Below are positions 24,098-36,586 of a DNA stretch of 47,426 bases, one piece after another. The notes beneath the pieces are model-generated. The model made no database searches. It was not told where the DNA came from and was given only the letters and a program-made list of their open reading frames with translations. The position numbers and the translations under genes are program-made. The DNA lies in IMG/VR virus record IMGVR_UViG_2778261504_000010, positions 1-47,426 of that record; one strand, 5' to 3'. The number at the start of each line of letters is the position of its first letter. Position 1 is the first letter of the stretch. The stretch comes from a virus. Lineage: Duplodnaviria; Heunggongvirae; Uroviricota; Caudoviricetes.

Positions 24098-24565
24098 TTA
24101 ATCAAAAAGCCCCACCTGGGTGGGGCTTGTCAGCGAAGTCTGTTTTTGTCGTCGGTGTATCAACTGCCATGCGTACCGGTCTGAAATGCCGTAACGGGGA
24201 CAGAGCAGTGCCAGCGCCTGCCGGTGTGAGCATCCGTCTTTTACATGCTGCTGTAAATCAGCCATAAAACGGGTGTTACGCAGGGCACGTAATGCATGAT
24301 CGCAACGGGGAATGTAAAACGGAGCACCGCCAAGAAAGCGGATCAGTTTGTTGATTTCGTCTTCGGTCAGCACATCATGTAACAGGGCATGGACGCCGCC
24401 GGTGCGTTCAGCGTGTGCGCCGGTTTTACCGCTTAACGTCACGCCACCAAAAGAACGGATTAACCGGGTCAGGGCGGGGAAGCCAATCACGCTAATCAGT
24501 TGTTGCACGGAGTCGGGCAGCAGTGCCTGCGCATCGCGAAGATCTGTTTCACTGAAGGTCTGCAT
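24098..24565 (-). CDS. Mor/C-family transcriptional activator
   Basis: 155 aa with C-terminal helix-turn-helix-like segment GISDRYAWQLI; located just upstream of lysis and late genes. Confidence 0.6.
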   Translation of the reverse strand: MQTFSETDLRDAQALLPDSVQQLISVIGFPALTRLIRSFGGVTLSGKTGAHAERTGGVHALLHDVLTEDEINKLIRFLGGAPFYIPRCDHALRALRNTRFMADLQQHVKDGCSHRQALALLCPRYGISDRYAWQLIHRRQKQTSLTSPTQVGLFD

Positions 24566-24664: not shown

Positions 24665-25141
24665 TTATTTAGTCAGGTCTAGAATAACCAGGCCTTTTCT
24701 TGATTCTATTTGCTCTTTACCAAAAACAAACGAATCAAAACAATCCATACGATATTCTTTAAACTGATTTCTTGAACGTTCCAGAAACTGCCTGTCATCC
24801 CTGATAACGTTAGACCAGTAATCCTGTAGCTGGTTTTTCATTTTTATGCAGGAACCATACACAGGATCAAGCGGGTCGTCCCCCAGTTTACTGGCCTGTT
24901 CATCCAATTGTTTTAGTCCTTTTTTGATATTCTTCCACTCTTCAATATTTCCCTGCTGATACTGCGATGCAGCTTCTGGCATAGCGTAATAAAGTTTTCC
25001 ACTTTCCCGAAGCATCTGTTCAGCCAATGGCTTCATATCCTGATAACGTTTCAGTTCCTTTTGCGCCTGTTCCTCTGTCTGTGCCAGCACAGAACAAGAG
25101 AAAATAACCCCTACTAAACAAAACAACCATTTTTTCATCAT
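24665..25141 (-). CDS. secreted protein of unknown function (AT-rich cargo gene)
   Basis: 158 aa; N-terminal signal peptide MMKKWLFCLVGVIFSCSVLA; visibly AT-rich compared with neighbours. Confidence 0.6.
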   Translation of the reverse strand: MMKKWLFCLVGVIFSCSVLAQTEEQAQKELKRYQDMKPLAEQMLRESGKLYYAMPEAASQYQQGNIEEWKNIKKGLKQLDEQASKLGDDPLDPVYGSCIKMKNQLQDYWSNVIRDDRQFLERSRNQFKEYRMDCFDSFVFGKEQIESRKGLVILDLTK

Positions 25142-25536
25142 TGATTTCTCCTTCTTGAATCTTTAACCAGCGCCACCATCACCCCAAAAAGCTGTTCATC
25201 CGTCAGCCATTCGATCACATGTTGCTTATACATGTGAGATGCCAGTCCTTCTGCATACGCCCAGGAACGACCTGCATCAGCCAGCAACGCTTCAATTTTG
25301 GATAATACTGATTTTCTGCTCATTGCAACATGAGGGCGGCGACCTTTACCAGCGGGTGCCTTGCGCGGGAATCCCTGTTCGTGCATGTATTCCCGGATGA
25401 TGCGCAGTTCATCGAGATTGCAGCGTGTGGTGCTGGTTTTACCGGTCAGGCGGGCCAGCGTCTGGCGATAAAGGGCATCATCCCACCCCAGATACGCCTG
25501 ACCAGCTTTAATGGCCCCGATCATCTTTTTCAGCAT
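25138..25536 (-). CDS. GemA-like protein (Mu gp16 family)
   Basis: Start taken at internal MLKKMIGAIKAGQAYLGWDD; resembles GemA family as recalled. Confidence 0.55.
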   Translation of the reverse strand: MLKKMIGAIKAGQAYLGWDDALYRQTLARLTGKTSTTRCNLDELRIIREYMHEQGFPRKAPAGKGRRPHVAMSRKSVLSKIEALLADAGRSWAYAEGLASHMYKQHVIEWLTDEQLFGVMVALVKDSRRRNQ

Positions 25537-25786
25537 GTTTGTTATCCTCAAAACGCACGGTAAAACGTGAAACGCCAATCCCTGACAAGAACGCAGCGGC
25601 ACGGTCAAGAGACAACCACGTCTTGTAATCGCCACGGCGTTCCTGTAGAAAATAGGACACACCGGCGCGGCGATTCACAGCGAAGAGGTGATACACACCA
25701 CCGAACCGCTGCACGACGAACTCATCCACGCCACCGCTTTCAGCCTGTTGCCGAAAGGCTGCCATTCCGATTTGTTCAATCTTCAT
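25508..25786 (-). CDS. hypothetical protein
   Basis: ORF-track start at 25795 is a TTG; first ATG at 25786. Confidence 0.35.
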   Translation of the reverse strand: MKIEQIGMAAFRQQAESGGVDEFVVQRFGGVYHLFAVNRRAGVSYFLQERRGDYKTWLSLDRAAAFLSGIGVSRFTVRFEDNKHAEKDDRGH

Positions 25787-25940
25787 AATGACCAAAACAC
25801 TACTTTTGGCAGACCAAAAAACATGTTTTGGTCTGCATTTGATTACTGTTTAAACAACCCGCGAAATCAGGAACGTCGAGTTACGGTGATGGCTTTCATC
25901 GTGTTGTTGCTCCGTGATTCAGAAAATTTCATGCCGGGCC

Positions 25941-26351
25941 TCAGTATGTGAAATAGACAGTTGCCACGCCGTTATAGTGATCAAACGACACGGCGTTTAC
26001 CTCATAACTGGCCGGGAGCTTCGAGCCAAGAACGTATCCGGGCCACGTTTTCCATGGAATTTCTCTGCTCTCACTGTCGCCATATACCGTACATCCCAGT
26101 GAGCCTACAGCTTCATAAGAACGCTTACCGCACGTTATGAACCCCAGATGTTGCTTACTGCCCTTAACAGAAATCGGGAGAGCACTGGCTGATGCGTTAG
26201 CAGCATCCCGCTCCTGTTGGCTTGCGATATTCGCAGAGTTCGCAGCAGCTGCGGCAGCAGTGGTTGCAGCGGTAGATGCCACAATAACTGCTGAAGCCTG
26301 CGCCTGCTGGGTAATGGTCAGCAATGCCGCCACAAAAATCATTTTCTTCAC
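25941..26351 (-). CDS. secreted protein of unknown function
   Basis: 136 aa; signal peptide MKKMIFVAALLTITQQAQA then Ala/Thr-rich low-complexity linker and Cys-containing C-terminal domain. Confidence 0.6.
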   Translation of the reverse strand: MKKMIFVAALLTITQQAQASAVIVASTAATTAAAAAANSANIASQQERDAANASASALPISVKGSKQHLGFITCGKRSYEAVGSLGCTVYGDSESREIPWKTWPGYVLGSKLPASYEVNAVSFDHYNGVATVYFTY

Positions 26352-26546
26352 CTGGTACCTCCTTTACATACTGTCATCGTACTGCGTACCCTTTCTTCCG
26401 CCTGTTCTGTGACGCGGTAGGCTTACGATTTACGGTAAAAGCCACCTGACCAAATGGATGGAGCACCGCTGTCTTATGGTTGCTGATAACCAGCGACACC
26501 ATACACACAGGTCGCTGTAAAAGAAGTCGTATTGCTTTACGGTTTT

Positions 26547-26861
26547 TCATCTGATTATTCCCCCTGAAACCAGCCCTGAACGGATTACTGTTTTTGCAAT
26601 ATGTGCCCGTAATTGCTGTGTTCCGTGATATTTGATTGCCACATCGCGTAACTTATTAACCAGTTCCCTGACCTGATGCTCCTTTGCTCCCGGTGTCACC
26701 GGAACGCCCCCTGTTTTCCGATACTCCTGAAGCTCCAGCAGAGACTGCCGTAAGAGCGTCCACCATTCGCTGTCTGCAACCGGCCCCATATCAAGCGCTC
26801 TGTCAGCATCGGCAATCAGTCTGGTCAGGCTCTTATCGCTTATTCTGGTTTGCTGGTTCAC
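26547..26861 (-). CDS. hypothetical protein
   Basis: 104-aa ORF in early region. Confidence 0.4.
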   Translation of the reverse strand: MNQQTRISDKSLTRLIADADRALDMGPVADSEWWTLLRQSLLELQEYRKTGGVPVTPGAKEHQVRELVNKLRDVAIKYHGTQQLRAHIAKTVIRSGLVSGGIIR

Positions 26862-27148
26862 TGCGCCGCCTCCTGCTCATTTTTTTCACTCCGGTATACC
26901 AAAATCACGACATCTCCCCGGGTAATTACGCGTGCCGGGTCGCCCTGTTGCATACGGTCAATATCAAAAGCGTCATTAAACGCATTTAGTGCCTTCACGC
27001 GCTTGTCTTTGCGGCGACGTTTTTCACATTGCTTAAAGAACGAAGAAATCAACCACCTGAATGACATAAAAGTGATATAGCCATAACCAATAAGCGCCAG
27101 ACCTGTATTCATGGCTACATCTATCGTTATCGTTTTATCAATGACCAT
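26858..27148 (-). CDS. small membrane protein
   Basis: 96 aa with one hydrophobic helix (LALIGYGYITFMSFRWLISSFF). Confidence 0.4.
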   Translation of the reverse strand: MVIDKTITIDVAMNTGLALIGYGYITFMSFRWLISSFFKQCEKRRRKDKRVKALNAFNDAFDIDRMQQGDPARVITRGDVVILVYRSEKNEQEAAQ

Positions 27149-27368
27149 TGCCAGCCTCCTGTTTTGCCACTTTAAACGCCCGTAACATCGGGACAGTCTT
27201 GCCGGTGATAACAGTTCTCATTAAAAGACCGCCACCGCTCTCATGGTGCACTTCAGGGGCTACAAACAACGCCGCATCCACAACCCGGTTATAGCGGCGA
27301 AACTCCCAGAGCCAGCAGGTAACAATGATTTTTGCTTTAGTCCCATAGTTATAAAATTCAATATTCAT
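27138..27368 (-). CDS. hypothetical protein
   Basis: 76-aa ORF, overlapping start/stop with neighbours. Confidence 0.35.
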   Translation of the reverse strand: MNIEFYNYGTKAKIIVTCWLWEFRRYNRVVDAALFVAPEVHHESGGGLLMRTVITGKTVPMLRAFKVAKQEAGNGH

Positions 27369-27592
27369 TTGCAGTTAAACCTCCTTTTGTGACGTTCTAC
27401 AGCGGCTTTCATGGCGTTGTGTACGGTTCTTTTAATAATCCGGTGTCCCGCACTGTCATAGAACCGCCACCGGGAAGCCCCCGGATATTTAGGGAACTCA
27501 ACCGCCGCGCTACCGTCATTCATCCTGTATTCGTGGCGTTCTCCGGGAGGCTGGTATATTGCTTCGGTAACACTGAGAAGTTTAAAAGCCAT
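27365..27592 (-). CDS. hypothetical protein
   Basis: 75-aa ORF. Confidence 0.35.
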   Translation of the reverse strand: MAFKLLSVTEAIYQPPGERHEYRMNDGSAAVEFPKYPGASRWRFYDSAGHRIIKRTVHNAMKAAVERHKRRFNCK

Positions 27593-27594
27593 CG

Positions 27595-28305
27595 TTATCC
27601 CCTCCCCAGTGCCAGCGGTCTGTTGCTCTGACCATTAACCCCCTGATGCAGCCTGGCGTTCTTCCCGGCGATAAAACCGGCAGTAGCGGCAAACTCTGCA
27701 CCCCGACACGCTTTAGCTGTGCGCATATCCCCGTCGCGCAGTCCCTTAGTGCTGTGCAGGTTCTTTCTGTAAAGCTCAAGGCGGCTTTTTTCTTCCGGGG
27801 AGACGTCATACACCGCAATGACATCACGGGCACCAAAGACCCAGCCTTCGCAGAACTGGTCGCCACGGGCCACCCGCGTGGACGGACCGCAACGTTTGCA
27901 GTGTTTATCCTGATATTTTTTACGTTCAGCCATCATCTGACGGGAAAGCACATCAAACGCGTATGCCGCAATTTCCGGGCGGCTGTCAGGACCATAAAAA
28001 CGAACGTAACGTTTGAGTGAACCAGAAGCCCGGTATTCACCTGAGATGTAACACTCGACGCCGAAGGCTTTACATACCAGGTCACACAGGATGTGCATAT
28101 AACGCGGCGGCGTACTGGCATCACTCGGCGCACCCGCGCTGGCAGCTTCCTGAATGTCGAACAATTCCGCGTCGTTTTCGCTGATGCCATGCTGGCGCAT
28201 ATAAGCCTGGGCTTTTGCAATAGCGTTAGCGGCTTCTTCCGGGCTTGATGTTCCTCTGGCAAGGCGTAACAGTTTTTTGATTTTGGCAATGTATTTATCT
28301 TTCAT
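27595..28305 (-). CDS. DUF2786-like phage protein
   Basis: 236 aa; N-terminus KIKKLLRLARGTSSPEEAANAIAKAQ resembles the motif of that family as recalled; Cys-rich centre. Confidence 0.45.
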   Translation of the reverse strand: MKDKYIAKIKKLLRLARGTSSPEEAANAIAKAQAYMRQHGISENDAELFDIQEAASAGAPSDASTPPRYMHILCDLVCKAFGVECYISGEYRASGSLKRYVRFYGPDSRPEIAAYAFDVLSRQMMAERKKYQDKHCKRCGPSTRVARGDQFCEGWVFGARDVIAVYDVSPEEKSRLELYRKNLHSTKGLRDGDMRTAKACRGAEFAATAGFIAGKNARLHQGVNGQSNRPLALGRG

Positions 28306-28392
28306 GGTTGTAACTCATTGTTTTTGATCAACTTATAACCACAAAACACTTGTCATAATCGCTGCCCCAACATACCAATCAGGAGTTAAAAA

Positions 28393-28611
28393 ATGATTGA
28401 TGATGAAATTGCGGCAGCAATTACTGCTAACAAAGCTGCGTGGAGCTTTCTGGTTAAACAGCTTTCAGAAAATGGCTGTCTGAACCTCAGCGCCCTGGAT
28501 TCTGAATTACGCAACTTCCAGCACGGCCTTCAGGAACGTGGGGAGTTCGTTCTGGCTGCGGCGCTGGATGAACATCTGCTGTCGATTGAGAACTGGTCGC
28601 AAGACGATTAA
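28393..28611 (+). CDS. small acidic protein encoded antisense to the early operon
   Basis: 72 aa; RBS AGGAG 7 nt upstream of ATG; followed by a terminator hairpin. Confidence 0.5.
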   Translation: MIDDEIAAAITANKAAWSFLVKQLSENGCLNLSALDSELRNFQHGLQERGEFVLAAALDEHLLSIENWSQDD

Positions 28612-28688
28612 AACAAACGATTGTCAGATTAATTTCGCGGGCGAACTTTTTTTGCTTAGCGATATTCATAAATAAACTCTCTCTGATT

Positions 28689-28730
28689 CAGGCGTAAGCC
28701 AGCCCCGGCGGGTTTACGCCTGTTTTAAAT
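28689..28730 (+). terminator. rho-independent terminator
   Basis: Stem caggcgtaa/ttacgcctg (28689-28722) followed by TTTTAAAT. Confidence 0.55.
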
Positions 28731-28751
28731 AACAATTGAAAACAAATTAAA

Positions 28752-28943
28752 TTAATGCGGTGCTTTCAGTGTTTCGATTTTAACGAAATAAGGCTCGACA
28801 TTAATTTCAACCACACAACCACATTTAAAATCTCTGGCGGGTGCAACAGTTTTTACCACCCGACCACCACGCACCGCCCGGTGTGCAATGTGCATGAAAC
28901 GAGTACCTGGCGGATATAGCTGATTAAAGCGTTTCGCGTTCAT
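28752..28943 (-). CDS. hypothetical protein
   Basis: 63-aa ORF. Confidence 0.3.
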   Translation of the reverse strand: MNAKRFNQLYPPGTRFMHIAHRAVRGGRVVKTVAPARDFKCGCVVEINVEPYFVKIETLKAPH

Positions 28944-29157
28944 GAGGCGGCTTCCATCCTTTCAGGTGAGCATTAGCACAGAACTCTGCCCGGTGTTCTG
29001 CCCAGATACGACGCAGGGTGCTACACGGGCTTTGCGCTGCCTTACGCCACAGTTTTTCTGCCTCGTCATAATCGCCACGTTGTTCTGCTCTGGATGCACC
29101 CAGCGAATACGCCGCGCAACTATTTCCGGCTCTGTACTCTTTGATATCCTGATGCAT
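28924..29157 (-). CDS. hypothetical protein
   Basis: Start taken at MHQDIKEY just after the upstream stop; the longer ORF-track version overlaps the upstream gene by 110 nt. Confidence 0.35.
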   Translation of the reverse strand: MHQDIKEYRAGNSCAAYSLGASRAEQRGDYDEAEKLWRKAAQSPCSTLRRIWAEHRAEFCANAHLKGWKPPHERETL

Positions 29158-29158
29158 G

Positions 29159-29803
29159 TTAAACCCCTGCAATATCAAGCGGGATTGAGCGGTATTCAGC
29201 AGAATCACCGACGCGCTCATACACGCGGATATAGCTTCTGCTGCCAACCACCTGGACGGCTTCACCAATCAGTTTCATGGCGTTATCCCAGCGTTCCTCC
29301 GTAATATCGAGACGACGCAGAGCCAGAACGCGCCCGGTGTTAATGTTGCCTTCCTTGTCCGTGCTGAATGCCTCGCTGATGATGGCTTTAATTTCAGGGC
29401 GTGCTCCTTCCGTCCAGTCAGCCAGACAGTCATCAATCAGTGCCTTCGCGGTCTGAATGCGTTCATCAAGCGCGATACGGTCCTGCATGGCGCGCTGAAT
29501 CTTGTAACGTCCGTCAAAGCTGTAAAGCGTGATATTCCCTTTTTTACCGCCTTTCACAGCGCCGTATTTCTCCGCCGACAGGTCAATAAACGCCTGAATA
29601 TCACCAAACGCACGCAGTTTCAGTTCACGCAGTGAGGCGGAGGCAGCAATCACCATCTCCACAAGCTCACCGACCAGCTGCTCGCGGTCACGGTCAATAT
29701 CTTTGATAAGGCTTTCAGGTGTCATTACGCCACGGGCATCCACCCAGTAACCTTCAGGCGCTTGAGTTTTCGTGTATTGCTTAACTTTATTTTCAGTCGT
29801 CAT
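29159..29803 (-). CDS. DUF3164-like phage protein
   Basis: 214-aa ORF; family assignment from memory only. Confidence 0.45.
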   Translation of the reverse strand: MTTENKVKQYTKTQAPEGYWVDARGVMTPESLIKDIDRDREQLVGELVEMVIAASASLRELKLRAFGDIQAFIDLSAEKYGAVKGGKKGNITLYSFDGRYKIQRAMQDRIALDERIQTAKALIDDCLADWTEGARPEIKAIISEAFSTDKEGNINTGRVLALRRLDITEERWDNAMKLIGEAVQVVGSRSYIRVYERVGDSAEYRSIPLDIAGV

Positions 29804-30506: not shown

Positions 30507-30746
30507 TTATTGCCATACGACGGTGCAGCCGTCGATACAGGACGTTTTAACCACACGACGCAGGCCGCTGAATGTCTGGATGATTTCCGTTACCGGCCAT
30601 ACAGGACCCCCCACGGGCGGGCAGGCATAAACCACAGGTAAACGGTGATGCTGTCCCGTTACACGGCCACCGGTGGTGTGGATGGCCACACGGGCACGGG
30701 AACGGACGGCGTTAATGGTCTGCTTGTCCATCGTCTTGTTCTCCAT
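30507..30746 (-). CDS. hypothetical protein
   Basis: 79-aa ORF; start overlaps stop of MuB-like gene. Confidence 0.35.
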   Translation of the reverse strand: MENKTMDKQTINAVRSRARVAIHTTGGRVTGQHHRLPVVYACPPVGGPVWPVTEIIQTFSGLRRVVKTSCIDGCTVVWQ

Positions 30747-31639
30747 CAGTGAATTAACATTTCTGCGAAATCATCAATAGCCTGCACACTGACCGGCGCA
30801 TCGCTGATATCACAAATCCGGTAGACCCCACGCACAAGTTTAAACAGGCGTCGGGCATTGCCCCGTGAGCGTGTGTAAAGTGCTTCACAGATTTCAGGCG
30901 CTGCTGCTTCCGGCATCAGTTCGGCGGCTATCTGGATGAAATCCTTCTGCGCCAGCGTATCGCCGAGGTCCAGCGAAAGAGCCACCCGACTGTATAGCTG
31001 CGCGAACTCCCCACGATTGCCTTTAAGATTAATCAACAGGCGCGGCATACCAGCCAGGGCAACACCGACGCCCGCCTTGTCATGCAGACGACGCAGAACT
31101 TCCAGCGCACGATAGGGGAGCAGTTCGGCTTCATCCACCATCAGCAGGCGACCGGAGTCACGCAATTCGTGTACGCAGGCATTAATCAGTTCGTGAATAT
31201 TGCCGCGAACCTTTACCCCCAACTGGCGGCACAGTTCCTCCAGCAGTGTCCTGGCTGTATAGCCCGGGTCAGCCTCAATCAGTATTGCGTCCCGGTTTCT
31301 GGCGGCGTATTCGCGCAAAATCATTGTTTTGCCAAGACCTGCCGCGCCATACAACACGCTAATTTCACACTCCAGATGAGCATAGGCCAGCGCCTCCAGC
31401 CCTTTGGCGGCCATACCTGTAGTCACAAAACTTGCTTTTACACGCCGGTTGTTTTCTTTTTCCCGTTCACGGCTGACAAAGGCAGAAATTCGCTCTTCGA
31501 TATCAGTGATATCGCCCTGATATTTACCCTGCAAATACTGGTTGATAACGGCGCTGCTACGACCAATAGCACGGGCAACGTGGGTCTGCGTATAGCCGCG
31601 ACGGGCCATTACGTCATTTAATTGCGTAATTAAACTCAT
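30746..31639 (-). CDS. MuB-like transposition ATPase
   Basis: 297 aa; N-terminal HTH-like segment then Walker A GAAGLGKT; immediately downstream of transposase. Confidence 0.8.
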   Translation of the reverse strand: MSLITQLNDVMARRGYTQTHVARAIGRSSAVINQYLQGKYQGDITDIEERISAFVSREREKENNRRVKASFVTTGMAAKGLEALAYAHLECEISVLYGAAGLGKTMILREYAARNRDAILIEADPGYTARTLLEELCRQLGVKVRGNIHELINACVHELRDSGRLLMVDEAELLPYRALEVLRRLHDKAGVGVALAGMPRLLINLKGNRGEFAQLYSRVALSLDLGDTLAQKDFIQIAAELMPEAAAPEICEALYTRSRGNARRLFKLVRGVYRICDISDAPVSVQAIDDFAEMLIH

Positions 31640-31656: not shown

Positions 31657-33702
31657 TTAACGGTTGTTTGTGCCGTCTTTCTTTAAATTGCGGTCACGCT
31701 CGGATGCAAAGAAATAAAGTTCTTCTTTTTTCTTTTCCTCCTTACGCTCCAGACCAAATCCAAAATTAAAGTCAGGTCTCTGCGTAATAGCCGGGGTAAG
31801 CTCGCGTTTAGCCTCTTCGATTTTCTGCGTGGCCCGTGCAATGCGGCCTCTGGCGCGTTTCTCCTGCTGCTGTTCGATAACAGCTTTCGGGAACGCATCA
31901 ACCTTATTACCGTTCCAGATGGCATCGCAGATATAAGAACCGTCCATCCGCCTGACAATCACGCTGTTTGCGTCGTGAATGTCGTAACAAACCCTGACTT
32001 CATTTCCGTGCTCTGCTGCCAGTTCTGTGGAGAAATAGATGTTTCTGAATAACACCACTTCACCGCGTCGCACCGTGCAGATGCTTTCCGGTCGGAACAT
32101 TTCATGCAGTTCTTCCGGCGACAGCATGTCGATTTCAGCCTTTTGCTCTTTTATCAGTTTCCGGCGATACGCTGCCGGGCTGTAATGTTCGCCATCCTCT
32201 TTGCGGGGAAGGCTGCTGTGTGGCCGGTTGTTATACCGTTTCACCTCCAGCTCTATTGCGGCCATCAGTTGCTCAAAAGTGGGGACTTCTCCCATCGCTT
32301 TAACCTGCCGCTTTGTCAGCTCTTTCCCTTTGTGGGTGGCCTTAATGGCTGACTGTGTGATGCGTTGCTGCATCATCACCGTTTCCTTGTCTGCATTTTT
32401 TGAGCAGTACGTCTGGAAACTCAGGGCCACATCTTTGGGTATTCCTTTGTTTGCCCGTTCTATTACCCCGCGCCCCTGCGGGTTACCAGGTGTCCCCGTG
32501 TGATGCTCCACACCCAGCCGGGGCAGAATCCCGGTAATATCGGCATCAAGCACCCGGTTTTTTTCACCGCCCCCGTTATCGGAGTAATAAATCAGCGGTA
32601 TTCCGTGTTGTGACATGCCATGACGCAATGCATCAGCAACGGCTATCACGTTCTCCGACAGGGACAGCGACCAGCCCACAATAAAGCGTTGCCCCGCATC
32701 CATAACCAGCGTCACTTCTGGCCGGAATGTATTCCCGGTGGCAGGGTTGAATGCCATCAGTTTCATACAGTGACCATCCCCGACCCATACCGCATTAACC
32801 GGTAATGTGCTCCAGTCGCGCCGCACAAAGGGATTGAGCGAACGCCAGGCTGAACCGGTGGAGCGGAAACGCTCTTTAACAATCACCGGGACGCTGCTTA
32901 ACACCCGTCTTACTGCGTGAACTGAAGGCAGTGCCGCCAGCATTCCCGCATCGTTCGCGTGTTTTTCATGCCACCAGGCTGAAAACTCGCGATACGCATA
33001 TTCAACGGTCGGGCGCTTCCATGAGCGATAGAACATAAAGAAATCGCTCAACCACCAGACCTGCTCCCACGGTGTTCCCTTATGATGACCGGGAGCCAGT
33101 AACGCCAGTAACTGATTGGCATCACCGCGCGCCATCAGCCAGGCGGAATACCATTCCTGTAAACTCCCTGTACTGACGCCAGTTCGCTTACCCTGTCGGG
33201 CATTGGCGGTATTACCGGCCACAATAACGCGCTCGGGCAAAGCCCCCTGGCGGATACCATCAACGATGTGTTTTATCGCTGCTGTCCTGGACATTCCTGC
33301 GTATTCACGCAGTTTATGCACTTCGGTAGCCAGCAATATCCGCGCATCAGCGATGGCCTTTTGCTTGTCGGTCAGTGCCTGGACTTCGCGTAATGCCAGT
33401 TCCGGGCATTTGACCATCACTTCCAGTTCATCACGAACGGTGACGTTCTTAACTGCCTTCTGCTCAACCACAACGGGCAGTTGTGTATCTTCCAGAATTT
33501 GCTGGGCTAGACGTTGGTGTAAAGCTTTCTGCACCTCCTCTGGAAAACTATCAATATGGTATTCAAAAGTAACACCTTTCACGCCAGCTCGTTGGCGGCT
33601 AACCCACCGTTGACGCTTTGCCATTCTAATCAGTGAGCTATTGTGTTTGGGGATACCAGCAATGCCCTGAAGTTCATTGAATGAATACCATTGGGATATC
33701 AT
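31657..33702 (-). CDS. MuA-like DDE transposase
   Basis: About 680 aa; N-terminus resembles the Mu winged-helix DNA-binding domain; start taken at MISQWYSF whose ATG overlaps the ner stop. Confidence 0.85.
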   Translation of the reverse strand: MISQWYSFNELQGIAGIPKHNSSLIRMAKRQRWVSRQRAGVKGVTFEYHIDSFPEEVQKALHQRLAQQILEDTQLPVVVEQKAVKNVTVRDELEVMVKCPELALREVQALTDKQKAIADARILLATEVHKLREYAGMSRTAAIKHIVDGIRQGALPERVIVAGNTANARQGKRTGVSTGSLQEWYSAWLMARGDANQLLALLAPGHHKGTPWEQVWWLSDFFMFYRSWKRPTVEYAYREFSAWWHEKHANDAGMLAALPSVHAVRRVLSSVPVIVKERFRSTGSAWRSLNPFVRRDWSTLPVNAVWVGDGHCMKLMAFNPATGNTFRPEVTLVMDAGQRFIVGWSLSLSENVIAVADALRHGMSQHGIPLIYYSDNGGGEKNRVLDADITGILPRLGVEHHTGTPGNPQGRGVIERANKGIPKDVALSFQTYCSKNADKETVMMQQRITQSAIKATHKGKELTKRQVKAMGEVPTFEQLMAAIELEVKRYNNRPHSSLPRKEDGEHYSPAAYRRKLIKEQKAEIDMLSPEELHEMFRPESICTVRRGEVVLFRNIYFSTELAAEHGNEVRVCYDIHDANSVIVRRMDGSYICDAIWNGNKVDAFPKAVIEQQQEKRARGRIARATQKIEEAKRELTPAITQRPDFNFGFGLERKEEKKKEELYFFASERDRNLKKDGTNNR

Positions 33703-33914
33703 AAGTATCTCTCCGGCCATATAGTTTCTGGCGACTCGCCAAGAGCTTCAGCGATAATTTTTTCTCCACGCGGATACGGCTTATCAAGAGCATTTTTCAA
33801 AGTGTACGGGGATAACGAGTTAAGCCTCCCTAAACCTGAAAGTGATAACCCTTTTTTTCGTAATTCAGCAATGACATCAGCTCGATGCCATCCGGTTCTT
33901 TTCTTGTGCTGCAT
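33699..33914 (-). CDS. Ner-like DNA-binding regulator
   Basis: 71 aa; WHRADVIAELRKKGLSLSGLGR...LKNALDKPYPRGEKIIAEALG closely resembles Mu Ner/Nlp. Confidence 0.8.
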   Translation of the reverse strand: MQHKKRTGWHRADVIAELRKKGLSLSGLGRLNSLSPYTLKNALDKPYPRGEKIIAEALGESPETIWPERYL

Positions 33915-34120
33915 TTCATGCCATCCTTATGAGTTAACTAGATAGCTACCTACACAAGTAGCTATAAGGCTACTTCGCAACAATAATGTGATTGCGTTGT
34001 GATTGCAAGCAAAAGCAACCACAAAAAATAGAATTTTTCTGCGCACTCTTGTTGCTTATTGATATTTAAGGTTTTTTGTGATTGCCGAAATATTGAGTCT
34101 GGCAATCATAAGGAGAGGAT
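33915..34120. promoter_or_regulatory. divergent promoter/operator region between ner and the c-like repressor
   Basis: 206 bp AT-rich; GTGATTGC at 33988, 33999, 34078; 7-bp inverted repeat gattgcc(34080-86)/ggcaatc(34101-07); palindrome tagctac...gtagcta (33942-33965). Confidence 0.55.
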
Positions 34121-34525
34121 ATGATTGCCAACAAAGAGTGGTTTACTGCACAAGAATTAGCCAACTTAGGACTACCTGGCTTCCCTAAAGATAAAAGTGG
34201 GATAAATCGTCGCGCCAACAAAGAAGGGTGGTTACGAAGGCAAAAAGCAAATGTTCGAGGGATCGCTTATGAATTTCATATTTCAGCCTTACCAATGGAA
34301 GCCCAACAAGTACTGGGGAACACTTCAGGTGTAGTTGGTGCTTCTATTGACATGGAGCTTTTAGAAAAGCTCATTGAATCAGTTGAGATTCTTTTAACTA
34401 AAAAACGAAAAAAAATGGAGCCACGAGAAAAAGCCAAGCTCATATCCATGTTGTACAAAGCATGTAAAAAATCAGACTCTATTGATGATGAAATTATCAG
34501 TAATATCATAGAATTAGTTGCATGA
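34121..34525 (+). CDS. c-like repressor (Mu-type winged-helix DNA-binding domain)
   Basis: 134 aa; WFTAQELANLGLPGFPKDKSGINRRANKEGWLRRQKANVRGIAYEFHISALPMEAQQVL parallels the N-terminus of the adjacent transposase; divergent from ner. Confidence 0.55.
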   Translation: MIANKEWFTAQELANLGLPGFPKDKSGINRRANKEGWLRRQKANVRGIAYEFHISALPMEAQQVLGNTSGVVGASIDMELLEKLIESVEILLTKKRKKMEPREKAKLISMLYKACKKSDSIDDEIISNIIELVA

Positions 34526-34540
34526 CAGAGAGGAACATTC

Positions 34541-35170
34541 ATGTCAAATGATAATGTGAGCAAATTCCCTACCACAAAAGGAAAAAAACTGATTGATGAG
34601 ATTATGGCCCAAATAGATCAGGAACCAGATATTGCAGTTCCTAGCAATATCAACAACCTGAGTATTTCAGGTACTGGAAACATTATAGGAAACAATAACA
34701 TACTACACATACAACAACCCGTCCCGCCCAAAAAGAAAGTTATTGTAAAGACAGGTGATGGTGTAATTAACGCTACTCAAAAGGCTCATTTGCAAGAACT
34801 TGTTAGGACGTTAGTTGAAATTCATACACAAGTAAAAAAGAGCAAACTGTCTTGGGGAGGCGCATGGAAAAAGATCTTAATCCCTTTAAAAATAAGTAGT
34901 TATCATGAAATCCCTAGCGTTCTCTATGAAAAAGCAGTCAAAATTCTGCAAAAAGAAATTGCTATCATAAAAAATATGAATTCTGCACCAAAGAAAGTTA
35001 GCAATTGGCGCTCATTGCAAATTAAAGCCATTCAAGCTCGTTGTAATGAACGAGGTTTACAAACTTGGCGTAAGGACTACATGCAAACTCATTTCGGTAA
35101 AGACTCGATGACTAAACTTACGGATAAAGAGCTACAAGCCTTGTACCGTGCTGTCATGGGAAAACGCTGA
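34541..35170 (+). CDS. hypothetical protein (AT-rich cargo gene downstream of repressor)
   Basis: 209-aa ORF, no hydrophobic segment, Lys/Asn/Ile-rich; no family recognised. Confidence 0.5.
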   Translation: MSNDNVSKFPTTKGKKLIDEIMAQIDQEPDIAVPSNINNLSISGTGNIIGNNNILHIQQPVPPKKKVIVKTGDGVINATQKAHLQELVRTLVEIHTQVKKSKLSWGGAWKKILIPLKISSYHEIPSVLYEKAVKILQKEIAIIKNMNSAPKKVSNWRSLQIKAIQARCNERGLQTWRKDYMQTHFGKDSMTKLTDKELQALYRAVMGKR

Positions 35171-35459
35171 TGGTTTTATAGGCCAAGAACCCTTGGCCTT
35201 ATCTAATTGATACAATCAACCCGATCTAAATCATCATAATCATCTTAAAGCCTGCTTGGTTAAATGTATTAAAAACAACCTAAGTTTGCTGCATAATCTG
35301 AGCAAATTCACCCAGAAAAAAACGTAAAAAAAAGCATTTTTGCGCATTTTCTTCAAAACGATCCAGAATCGGTGAAATCTCCCACATCCCGCACCAATCA
35401 AGGCCTACAGGCTTATATTGACTGCTCGGACTCAGCCCAGAATTGATCACCACCCCACA
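35171..35459. mobile_element. Mu-like prophage terminal region (transposase-binding end) and junction with host
   Basis: Non-coding; AAAACG/CGTTTT-type motifs at 35321-35370; element ends ...ccaca at 35459, where the ynfF reading frame breaks. Confidence 0.5.
35181..35205 (+). terminator. terminator-like hairpin after the 209-aa gene
   Basis: Stem ggccaag/cttggcc (35181-35198) followed by T-rich ttatctaatt. Confidence 0.4.
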
Positions 35460-36586
35460 CAACCCTGACAAATATAAGCAGGTTTTGCTGAACCGATCTC
35501 TCGTGCCAACTGGATAATTTTTTCTGCCGGGATGCTGGTGATTTTTGCTGCCCATTCCGGCGTTTTAGCTATGCCGTCAGGCCCTTCGCCCAGAATATAG
35601 GCTTTATAATGCGCGTTACGTGGTGCGTTGGCGGGCAGCGTTTTTTCATCGTAACCAACACAATATTTGTCGAGAAATGGCTGATCGACCATGTTTTCAG
35701 TAATCAGTACCCAGGCAATCGCACAGGCCAGTGCGCCATCGGTGCCAGGGCGAATGGGCAGCCATTCATCTTCACGCCCGGCAGCAGTGTCGTTATAACG
35801 TGGATCGATGACGATCATGCGTGCGTTTGAACGTTCGCGGGCTTGCTCGACGTAGTAAGTGACACCACCGCCGCTCATCCGCGTTTCTGCCGGGTTATTT
35901 CCGAACATAACGACCAGTTTCGTATTGGCGATATCATCCGGGCTGTTGCCATCATTGGCACCGAACATATAACTCATTGCGGCACTGATCTGTGCGGTAC
36001 TGTAGCTGCCATAGCGACTGAGAAAACCACCGCAAGAGTTCATCAGACGGTACGGGACGTTTGAGTTGGTGATGTTTCCGCCATCTACGCCTGTTCCGTA
36101 CAGGACATGTACAGCCTCATTGCCGTAATCTTTCAGGATCCGCCGAAGATTATCACTGATGGTATCCAGGGCTTCGTCCCAACTTATCCGTTCAAATTTA
36201 CCTTCACCGCGCTTGCCGACGCGCTTCATGGGATATTTCAACCTATCAGGATGATTCATCCGTCGGCGGATAGAGCGCCCGCGTAAACACGCTCGAACCT
36301 GATGGTTACCGTAGACGTCGTCACCTGTCGTATCAGACTCCACCCAGTACACGGTGTCATCTTTCACATGCAAACGTAACAGACAGCGGCTCCCGCAGTT
36401 AACGGTGCAGGAACTCCAGACCGCTTTCTCTTCTACCGGAGCCTCTGCCGCCCGGACCATTTGGGAAAATGGCAGAGTGAAAGCACTGCTTGCCAGCGCA
36501 AGACTGCCAAGTGCGGAGGTTTTCATCAGACTTCTACGGCTGATTTCAGCCTTCATGAGCGCCTCTGTGGTATGGATTTTCATCAT
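35450..36586 (-). pseudogene. ynfF: ynfF', 5' fragment of DMSO-reductase-family catalytic subunit truncated by the prophage
   Basis: 378 aa with Tat motif SRRSLMK; paralogous to the full-length downstream gene up to ...AKPAYICQG, then CVGW-stop where the paralogue continues WGPQRQ. Confidence 0.75.

Follow-up and report, generated by a model that had tools for sequence, protein, structure and literature searches.

A block of small, uncharacterized genes fills positions 26547 to 28305 on the minus strand of IMG/VR virus record IMGVR_UViG_2778261504_000010, within a stretch of 47,426 nucleotides (nt) that was analyzed as a whole and is referred to here as the window. Such a block is ordinary for a Mu-like transposable prophage, here one of Escherichia coli, and the genes in it are members of catalogued, uncharacterized families. 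The block is not uniform, as judged from comparative sequence data: open reading frames (ORFs) 1 and 2 behave as conserved phage genes, because they combine a low ratio of nonsynonymous to synonymous polymorphism (pN/pS) and a fixed position with virulent relatives beside polymerase and helicase genes, whereas ORF3 to ORF6 behave as accessory genes, because they show presence/absence and a mosaic pattern among near-identical prophages. We consider it moderately probable that the block is the middle of a semi-essential early operon, in which a conserved pair and an exchangeable accessory set would have the roles proposed below. The coordinates of all ORFs and of the neighboring genes are given in Table 1.

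Pooled pN/pS was calculated against up to ten related prophages (fewer where a gene was missing or a sequence repeats), as pairwise comparisons to the window and hence without phylogenetic independence. The values were 0.05 for ORF1 and 0.12 for ORF2, against 0.30 for ORF3, 0.31 for ORF4, and 0.33 for the N-terminal half of ORF5; GemA gave 0.08. IMG/VR was then scanned with the ORF1 alignment, yielding 80 loci, and neighboring genes were sought in them by tblastn with the window proteins. GemA was found in 46 loci, Mor in 45, MuB in 43, and DUF3164 in approximately 53 to 60. The gene order was constant, with ORF1 located between the DUF3164 slot and GemA. ORF2 was present in 36 of the 80 loci, directly downstream of ORF1 in 20 and shifted by 73 to 1752 nt in 16, while the accessory genes were encountered in 9 (ORF3), 8 (ORF4), 6 (ORF5), and 2 (ORF6) loci. 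Median identity across the loci was 48% for ORF1, 46% for MuA, 55% for MuB, and 54% for GemA. A second group of loci, checked on one of them (L031), also consists of transposable phages, with an AAA_22 B-like ATPase, DUF3164, GemA, and Mor; at the transposase position of L031, upstream of the B-like ATPase, lies an ORF of 595 amino acids (aa) with no Pfam match (645 to 2432 of that locus). Homologues of ORF1 were further found in the Pseudomonas phages PM105 (B3-like) and LPB1 (D3112-like), in Ralstonia prophage records, in a prophage of lambdoid type (L078) that carries an S24 repressor, CII, and an integrase, and in the virulent phages PaMx74 and DoCa5, where the gene sits in an early gene cluster and precedes the DNA polymerase and helicase genes by approximately 2 kb.

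The slot approximately 1 kb upstream of ORF1 is occupied in 10 loci by a Mu-type Gam in place of DUF3164. A comparison of D3112 (Gam) with LPB1 (DUF3164), which display the same swap, had raised the idea that ORF1 is tied to DUF3164 as the alternative to Gam; this was rejected, since ORF1 occurs with either and is thus independent of which of the two lies upstream. Gam and DUF3164 were almost mutually exclusive in this slot, one locus having DUF3164 together with a weak Gam-like match elsewhere, and this near-exclusive sharing suggests that DUF3164 may stand in functionally for Gam. DUF3164 has some mentions in the literature, never in a title or abstract.

Several points weigh against the reading of a conserved pair beside an accessory set. 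Mu and D3112 are without ORF1, so that ORF1 is not essential for transposable phages in general. The identity of ORF1 rank-correlated weakly with that of MuA (rho, 0.43) and not with that of MuB or GemA, which suggests that ORF1, too, is exchanged between phages; on the same correlations, vertical co-evolution of ORF1 with the transposition genes was rejected. Lastly, conserved genes can still be anti-defense genes. In a rival explanation, possible but on balance unlikely, all five (or six) proteins are host-takeover or anti-defense effectors, each of which would inhibit a host protein or an immune system soon after induction or infection. Such a reading would fit the variable ORF3 to ORF6 far better than ORF1 and ORF2. 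It is opposed by the strong purifying selection on ORF1 and ORF2 and their fixed position across distant transposable phages, by the occurrence of the ORF1 family in replication clusters of virulent phages, and by the lack of matches to PADLOC models or, by sequence, to solved anti-defense proteins, the PADLOC scan having returned a single marginal match for the block, that of ORF2 to "E2" (15.5 bits; E value, 0.0028). Anti-defense genes of the fast-turnover kind are not usually so conserved in sequence and position, and we do not think that ORF1 is one of them.

The accessory character of ORF3 to ORF6 is seen in a comparison of prophages that share at least 95% nucleotide identity in ORF1. 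In this survey, the DNA between the end of ORF3 and the conserved o95/GemA block varied in length from 831 to 2525 bp and the o63-ORF1 stretch from 96 to 1354 bp, the DUF4752 gene (ORF4) was missing from the close relatives L005, L008, and L010, and ead/Ea22-like, XF1762-family, and other genes were inserted in some relatives. Among prophages with a 99%-identical ORF1, ORF3 had 72 to 99% amino acid identity. Relatives of these genes were found well outside transposable phages. ORF3 belongs to PHROG family phrog_1001 (E value, 5e-35) and has relatives of 31 to 48% identity by tblastn in 101 phage records, including Shiga toxin (Stx)-converting and Klebsiella temperate phages. ORF4 (phrog_667) has relatives in 95 phage records; in Shigella phage POCJ13, the DUF4752 gene immediately precedes an ead/Ea22-like gene, and in the P22-like phage ST64T it follows directly on the helicase gene and opens the nin region. 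ORF6 (phrog_1380) is a single-ORF cassette: exactly 26374 to 26551 has 91 to 93% nucleotide identity to the Stx phages TL-2011b/c, to the P1-like RCS47, and to P1, and the relative in RCS47 sits among ead/Ea22-like, DUF551, and eaa genes.

ORF5 is itself a mosaic, with phrog_14672 covering residues 1 to 50 and several other PHROGs covering residues 59 to 95. The first 50 residues correspond to a module that stands alone as a protein of 54 to 68 aa in the prophages of E2348/69, RSHH22, and other relatives. Residues 60 to approximately 93, encoded in 26550 to 26702 (residues 55 to 104), form a 35-aa module (KEHQVRELVNKLRDVAIKYHGTQQLR…) that recurs at the ends of otherwise unrelated phage proteins. 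In a tblastn search against phages, residues 60 to 92 were 67% identical to the C-terminal module of the P22-type EaA of phages L and Emek, and the 35-aa module had 60 to 74% identity in "Eaa" of Klebsiella podophages and in proteins of the T4-like phages RB49 and JSE. It looks like a widely shuffled C-terminal mini-domain. An assignment of ORF5 as Ea22-like was considered and rejected, as there was no PDB match to lambda Ea22, no NCBIfam match, and no BLASTP similarity to the ead/Ea22-like proteins of related prophages and POCJ13.

The initial annotation had described a block of five genes with overlapping starts and stops. Five minus-strand ORFs are indeed present and fill 26547 to 28305 exactly; the probably coupled run, however, comprises at least six cistrons, because ORF6, just outside these limits, overlaps ORF5. 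Three of the four internal junctions overlap, namely ORF2/ORF3 (ATGA), ORF3/ORF4 (11 nt), and ORF4/ORF5 (GTGA), which is compatible with the translational coupling proposed there, while ORF1 and ORF2 are separated by a 2-nt spacer (TAA-CG-ATG) with no overlap. The ORF5/ORF6 junction is again ATGA, and ORF7 starts 22 nt past ORF6 with its own AGGAGG. A Shine-Dalgarno-like GGAG or AGGAGG was located shortly upstream of the start of each of ORF2 to ORF7, ORF1 having only a weak one. This stop-to-start packing, together with a ribosome-binding site for each cistron, makes it probable that the cistrons are translated as a coupled series. A consensus scan of 25800 to 29300 found no promoter-like site (3.3 expected), and no convincing minus-strand terminator was detected in the same interval, which agrees with read-through from the early promoter without proving it. 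The region matched no Rfam family and contained no notable repeats except for one hairpin at 28689 to 28722.

Table 1. Positions in the window of the ORFs of the block and of neighboring early-region genes
Feature	Coordinates	Strand	Description
ORF1	27595-28305	minus	236 aa; isoelectric point (pI) 9.4
ORF2	27365-27592	minus	75 aa; pI 10.2
ORF3	27138-27368	minus	76 aa; pI 9.6
ORF4	26858-27148	minus	96 aa; DUF4752
ORF5	26547-26861	minus	104 aa; GTG start
ORF6	26374-26550	minus	58 aa; pI 12; outside 26547-28305 but in the same, probably coupled run
ORF7	25941-26351	minus	136 aa; phrog_8805
Mu c-type repressor ORF	34121-34525	plus	N-terminal region similar to that of MuA
Ner-like ORF	33699-33914	minus	Faces the repressor ORF
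Mu-type transposase MuA	31657-33720	minus	Pfam Mu-transpos_C and HTH_Tnp_Mu_1
B-like AAA ATPase	30746-31639	minus	Pfam AAA_22
DUF3164	29159-29803	minus	Pfam
GemA	25138-25662	minus	Pfam
Mor	24098-24565	minus	Pfam

ORF1 belongs to phrog_421 and contains two recognizable domains. DUF2786 (PF10979) spans residues 4 to 43 and model positions 1 to 40 of 40 (49.1 bits against a gathering cutoff of 23.9; E value, 5.3e-13), and DUF7168 (PF23771) spans residues 60 to 187 and model positions 11 to 132 of 140 (102.2 bits against a cutoff of 25.5; E value, 2.5e-29). Both domains and a similar length were present in all but 2 of the 120 listed homologues, and nearly all listed family members were 220 to 245 aa long. 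A profile search of 1.84 billion cluster representatives returned 12,425 members at an E value of ≤1e-3 and 939 at ≤1e-30, counted in clusters at 50% identity. Domain partners of DUF2786 were sought with a consensus-style DUF2786 probe, which gave only fragments of 38 to 80 aa. The initial annotation had recognized none of the ORFs except for a DUF2786-like N-terminal motif; the motif is a genuine DUF2786 domain and none of the proteins has a known function, but DUF7168, DUF4752, and a PHROG family for every ORF were recognizable as well.

The AlphaFold2 (AF2) model of ORF1 (predicted local distance difference test [pLDDT] score, 87.1; predicted template modeling [pTM] score, 0.76) begins with an N-terminal helical hairpin (residues 2 to 18 and 22 to 38) and a linker, continues with a core of a three-stranded sheet and one helix (residues 51 to 55, 68 to 81, 84 to 91, and 97 to 106), and ends with four long helices and a disordered tail. 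An alignment of 52 homologues revealed a conserved motif, AG(Y/F)xAGKNAxLHxGVxG, in the tail just past the last helix, and a Cys152 that is nearly invariant, yet replaced in some members; there was no conserved catalytic-looking constellation of residues. Foldseek searches against BFVD recovered the fold in Sinorhizobium phage phiM12, Delftia phage PhiW-14, Serratia phage MTx, and Tenacibaculum phage pT24, as well as in Gordonia phage Ghobes, Mycobacterium phage Hawkeye, and Bacillus phage SP-15. The matched proteins come from temperate and virulent phages and are all uncharacterized.

A weak but recurrent KH-like fold signal was obtained for ORF1. It raises a specific alternative, in which ORF1 is a KH-like single-stranded nucleic acid binder acting on early transcripts or on replication/transposition intermediates, with ORF2 as its partner subunit. 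We judge this improbable. No GXXG occurs in residues 56 to 67 (ASAGAPSDASTP; family consensus, SKGAPSxA); ORF1 has a single conserved GxxG, GVNG at residues 222 to 225 in the disordered tail, and no KH family in Pfam matched ORF1 at an E value of ≤0.1. Our preferred interpretation is broader: ORF1, perhaps with ORF2, is most likely a non-enzymatic binding protein of the early replication phase, since the protein is basic and weakly KH-like in its core, and members of its family in virulent phages neighbor replication genes. As a basic, apparently non-enzymatic two-domain protein, it would bind nucleic acid or a host or phage protein during DNA replication, and ORF2 could work together with it. 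A more far-reaching proposal, to which we assign a low probability, is that the ORF1/ORF2 pair serves transposable phages in a conserved early function that has gone unrecognized, as ORF1 by itself would in many other phages; it would be a non-enzymatic factor with a KH-like core, binding nucleic acid or a host protein and needed for efficient replication or replicative transposition. If this were true, the 12,000-cluster DUF family would be a general phage replication-phase accessory factor and not a collection of orphans.

ORF2 matches phrog_9400 (E value, 2e-40), and its AF2 model consists of four strands and a C-terminal basic helix (pLDDT, 84.6). It is unannotated in four RefSeq relatives (L001 to L004), yet it is intact in them, with 93 to 99% amino acid identity, and 324 contigs elsewhere have a gene call with exactly this sequence. 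On this evidence, we regard ORF2 as a real conserved gene left unannotated in the RefSeq relatives. Its omission there, together with the absence of the exact ORF6 sequence from a collection of 15 billion proteins, might be taken to mean that some of the small ORFs are chance open frames in transcribed spacer. This is very improbable, as every block ORF matches a PHROG family (E values, 1e-19 to 1e-70), Shine-Dalgarno motifs are present, and pN/pS is well below 1, and as ORF2 in particular has both a confident predicted fold and its numerous contig calls.

ORF4 covers the whole DUF4752 model (PF15944; residues 7 to 90, model positions 1 to 84 of 84; 138.7 bits against a gathering cutoff of 27; E value, 6.4e-41). 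Its layout comprises a hydrophobic N-terminal segment (approximately residues 13 to 37), a KRRRKDKR cluster, and a small C-terminal domain. The maximum Kyte-Doolittle value over 19 residues was 1.24 (residues 16 to 34, with an Arg inside), compared with 1.55 in the POCJ13 protein and 1.78 in that of ST64T. The initial annotation had listed a single-helix membrane protein in the block; ORF4 does have a hydrophobic N-terminal helix followed by a basic cluster, and with a mean of only 1.24, it is a probable membrane helix. ORF4 is probably a single-pass membrane-anchored protein and would act at the inner membrane. A further step would be to regard it, possibly with its neighbors, as a membrane-acting host-killing, division-blocking, or superinfection-exclusion factor with a role comparable to that of small membrane or Kil-type phage proteins. 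Besides the hydrophobic segment and basic cluster, this idea draws on the status of ORF4 as a non-essential accessory gene, present or absent among relatives, and on its occurrence in early operons of lambdoid and P22-like phages. However, the window copy falls short of the usual transmembrane threshold in hydropathy, the libraries searched gave no homology to Kil, SieB, Imm, or similar proteins, and a separate weak Kil-like ORF lies directly after the B gene, and we hold such a factor to be quite improbable. That ORF (30507 to 30746, minus strand; 79 aa) has a weak likeness to Mu Kil (34% over 44 aa; E value, 0.007) and occupies the place of kil in Mu.

For ORF3 to ORF6 as a group, we propose that they are drawn from the pool of non-essential early genes (ea and nin regions) of lambdoid, P22-like, and P1-like phages. 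By analogy with that pool, they most likely act on host targets. They would do so singly, in takeover, exclusion, or counter-defense, with one small protein per function.

The initial annotation had placed the block in the early region of a transposable phage, and Pfam matches to MuA, a B-like ATPase, DUF3164, GemA, and Mor around it bear this out. Because its ORFs sit between MuA/MuB on one side and GemA/Mor on the other, all on the same strand, the block corresponds to the semi-essential early region of a Mu-like prophage. Near-identical annotated prophages are found in E. coli E2348/69 (in eutC), RSHH22 (in ycgB), 160-11H1, and OkiPb01701, and the different insertion sites (eutC and ycgB) are as expected of a transposable phage. 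In the model that we propose, the early operon would be read on the minus strand from a promoter region between the repressor and ner, with transcription proceeding across A and B as far as gemA and mor.

Several other features of the region were noted. The repressor lies in a segment of 36% GC (34001 to 35450), together with an uncharacterized 209-aa ORF (34541 to 35170, plus strand). Just past this segment, a 379-aa ORF (35447 to 36586, minus strand) with a twin-arginine signal resembles the N-terminal part of a molybdoenzyme and may have been truncated by the prophage insertion. Between GemA and Mor, a 158-aa ORF (24665 to 25141, minus strand) has a lipoprotein-like N-terminus (…VIFSCS…) and a 4-nt overlap with the GemA stop; it was 100% identical in E2348/69, 68% identical in OkiPb01701, and not detected in the other relatives. 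ORF7, which only some relatives carry, has at its N-terminus a segment resembling a signal peptide (cleavage-like AQA-S) and also contains an Ala-rich stretch. Upstream of ORF1, the gene at 28924 to 29268 (minus strand) encodes a homologue of the ANR small anti-activator regulators (NF033650, 57.3 bits against a cutoff of 32); it was detected in 37 of the 80 IMG/VR loci and is conserved in the early region of this phage clade.

An acidic 72-aa ORF on the plus strand (28393 to 28611) has a strong AGGAG and, as read from the sequence, an extended -10-like TGTCATAAT upstream, and it overlaps an antisense 60-aa ORF on the minus strand (28487 to 28669). The nearby hairpin has 16-nt arms, followed by a T-run on the plus strand only, and relatives differ by an indel of approximately 170 nt in the 28393 to 28722 region. 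As a candidate antisense moron, the 72-aa ORF yields divided evidence: the substitution pattern, on small counts, favors the minus-strand ORF (pN/pS, 0.29) over the plus-strand one (1.17), whereas it is the 72-aa ORF that has been called on 598 contigs and in E2348/69.

Collectively, this analysis adds to the picture of the block a two-layer structure, a sixth, probably coupled ORF, a real but unannotated ORF2, and links from the accessory layer to the ea/nin pool; it leaves the current understanding of transposable phages unchanged. Its practical value lies in sorting the genes, as the block is not one homogeneous set of anti-defense candidates. With members in temperate and virulent phages alike and a confidently predicted structure, the ORF1 family is among the larger phage protein families still without a function, making ORF1 a reasonable target for a focused experiment. 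ORF3 to ORF6 show that Mu-like, lambdoid, P22-like, and P1-like enterobacterial phages take small early accessory genes from a common pool, at times as cassettes of a single ORF, and this pool would be the best aim for host-interaction or counter-defense screens.

Comparison with known systems was made at the level of sequence, context, and literature. No block ORF matched a protein of known function in Pfam, PHROG, NCBIfam, PADLOC, or PDB sequence searches: the NCBIfam library gave no match, PDB searches with ORF1 to ORF5 returned nothing at an E value of <0.2, and the database names of the block proteins are all "hypothetical" or "DUF." In the literature, DUF2786 has passing mentions only, never in a title or abstract; no mention was found of DUF4752, DUF7168, or their Pfam/InterPro accessions, and nothing functional for the block was found in work on Mu-like early regions and ea genes. 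The closest relatives of ORF1 are the DUF2786 + DUF7168 proteins (PHROG 421); it is full-length, has their two-domain architecture and typical length, and shows no difference from them, and that family is itself without an assigned function. The non-essential early genes of lambdoid, P22-like, and P1-like phages (exo-xis/ea and nin regions) hold relatives of ORF3, ORF4, ORF6, and the C-terminal module of ORF5. The block genes differ from them in sitting in a transposable-phage operon, and ORF5 differs in not being a homologue of lambda Ea22. Experiments on lambda exo-xis genes such as ea22 (PMC7093339) concern other proteins and are not transferable to the block.

The system most similar in organization is the semi-essential early region of Mu (kil, gam, and gp6 to gp15, between B and gemA). 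A comparison with Mu kil/gam, as suggested by the initial annotation, revealed no homology: tblastn with all Mu early proteins gave no match inside 26374 to 28305, and no Mu protein of that region is homologous to the block ORFs. Remote homology of ORF1 to Mu gp11 or gp12 was also rejected (hhalign probabilities, 0.2% and 1.4%). The slot upstream likewise differs in content, holding Gam in Mu and DUF3164 in the prophage of the window. In both phages, however, small, mostly uncharacterized, non-structural genes lie between the B ATPase and GemA/Mor, and the block shares with its Mu counterpart the same position, strand, packing, and operon logic.

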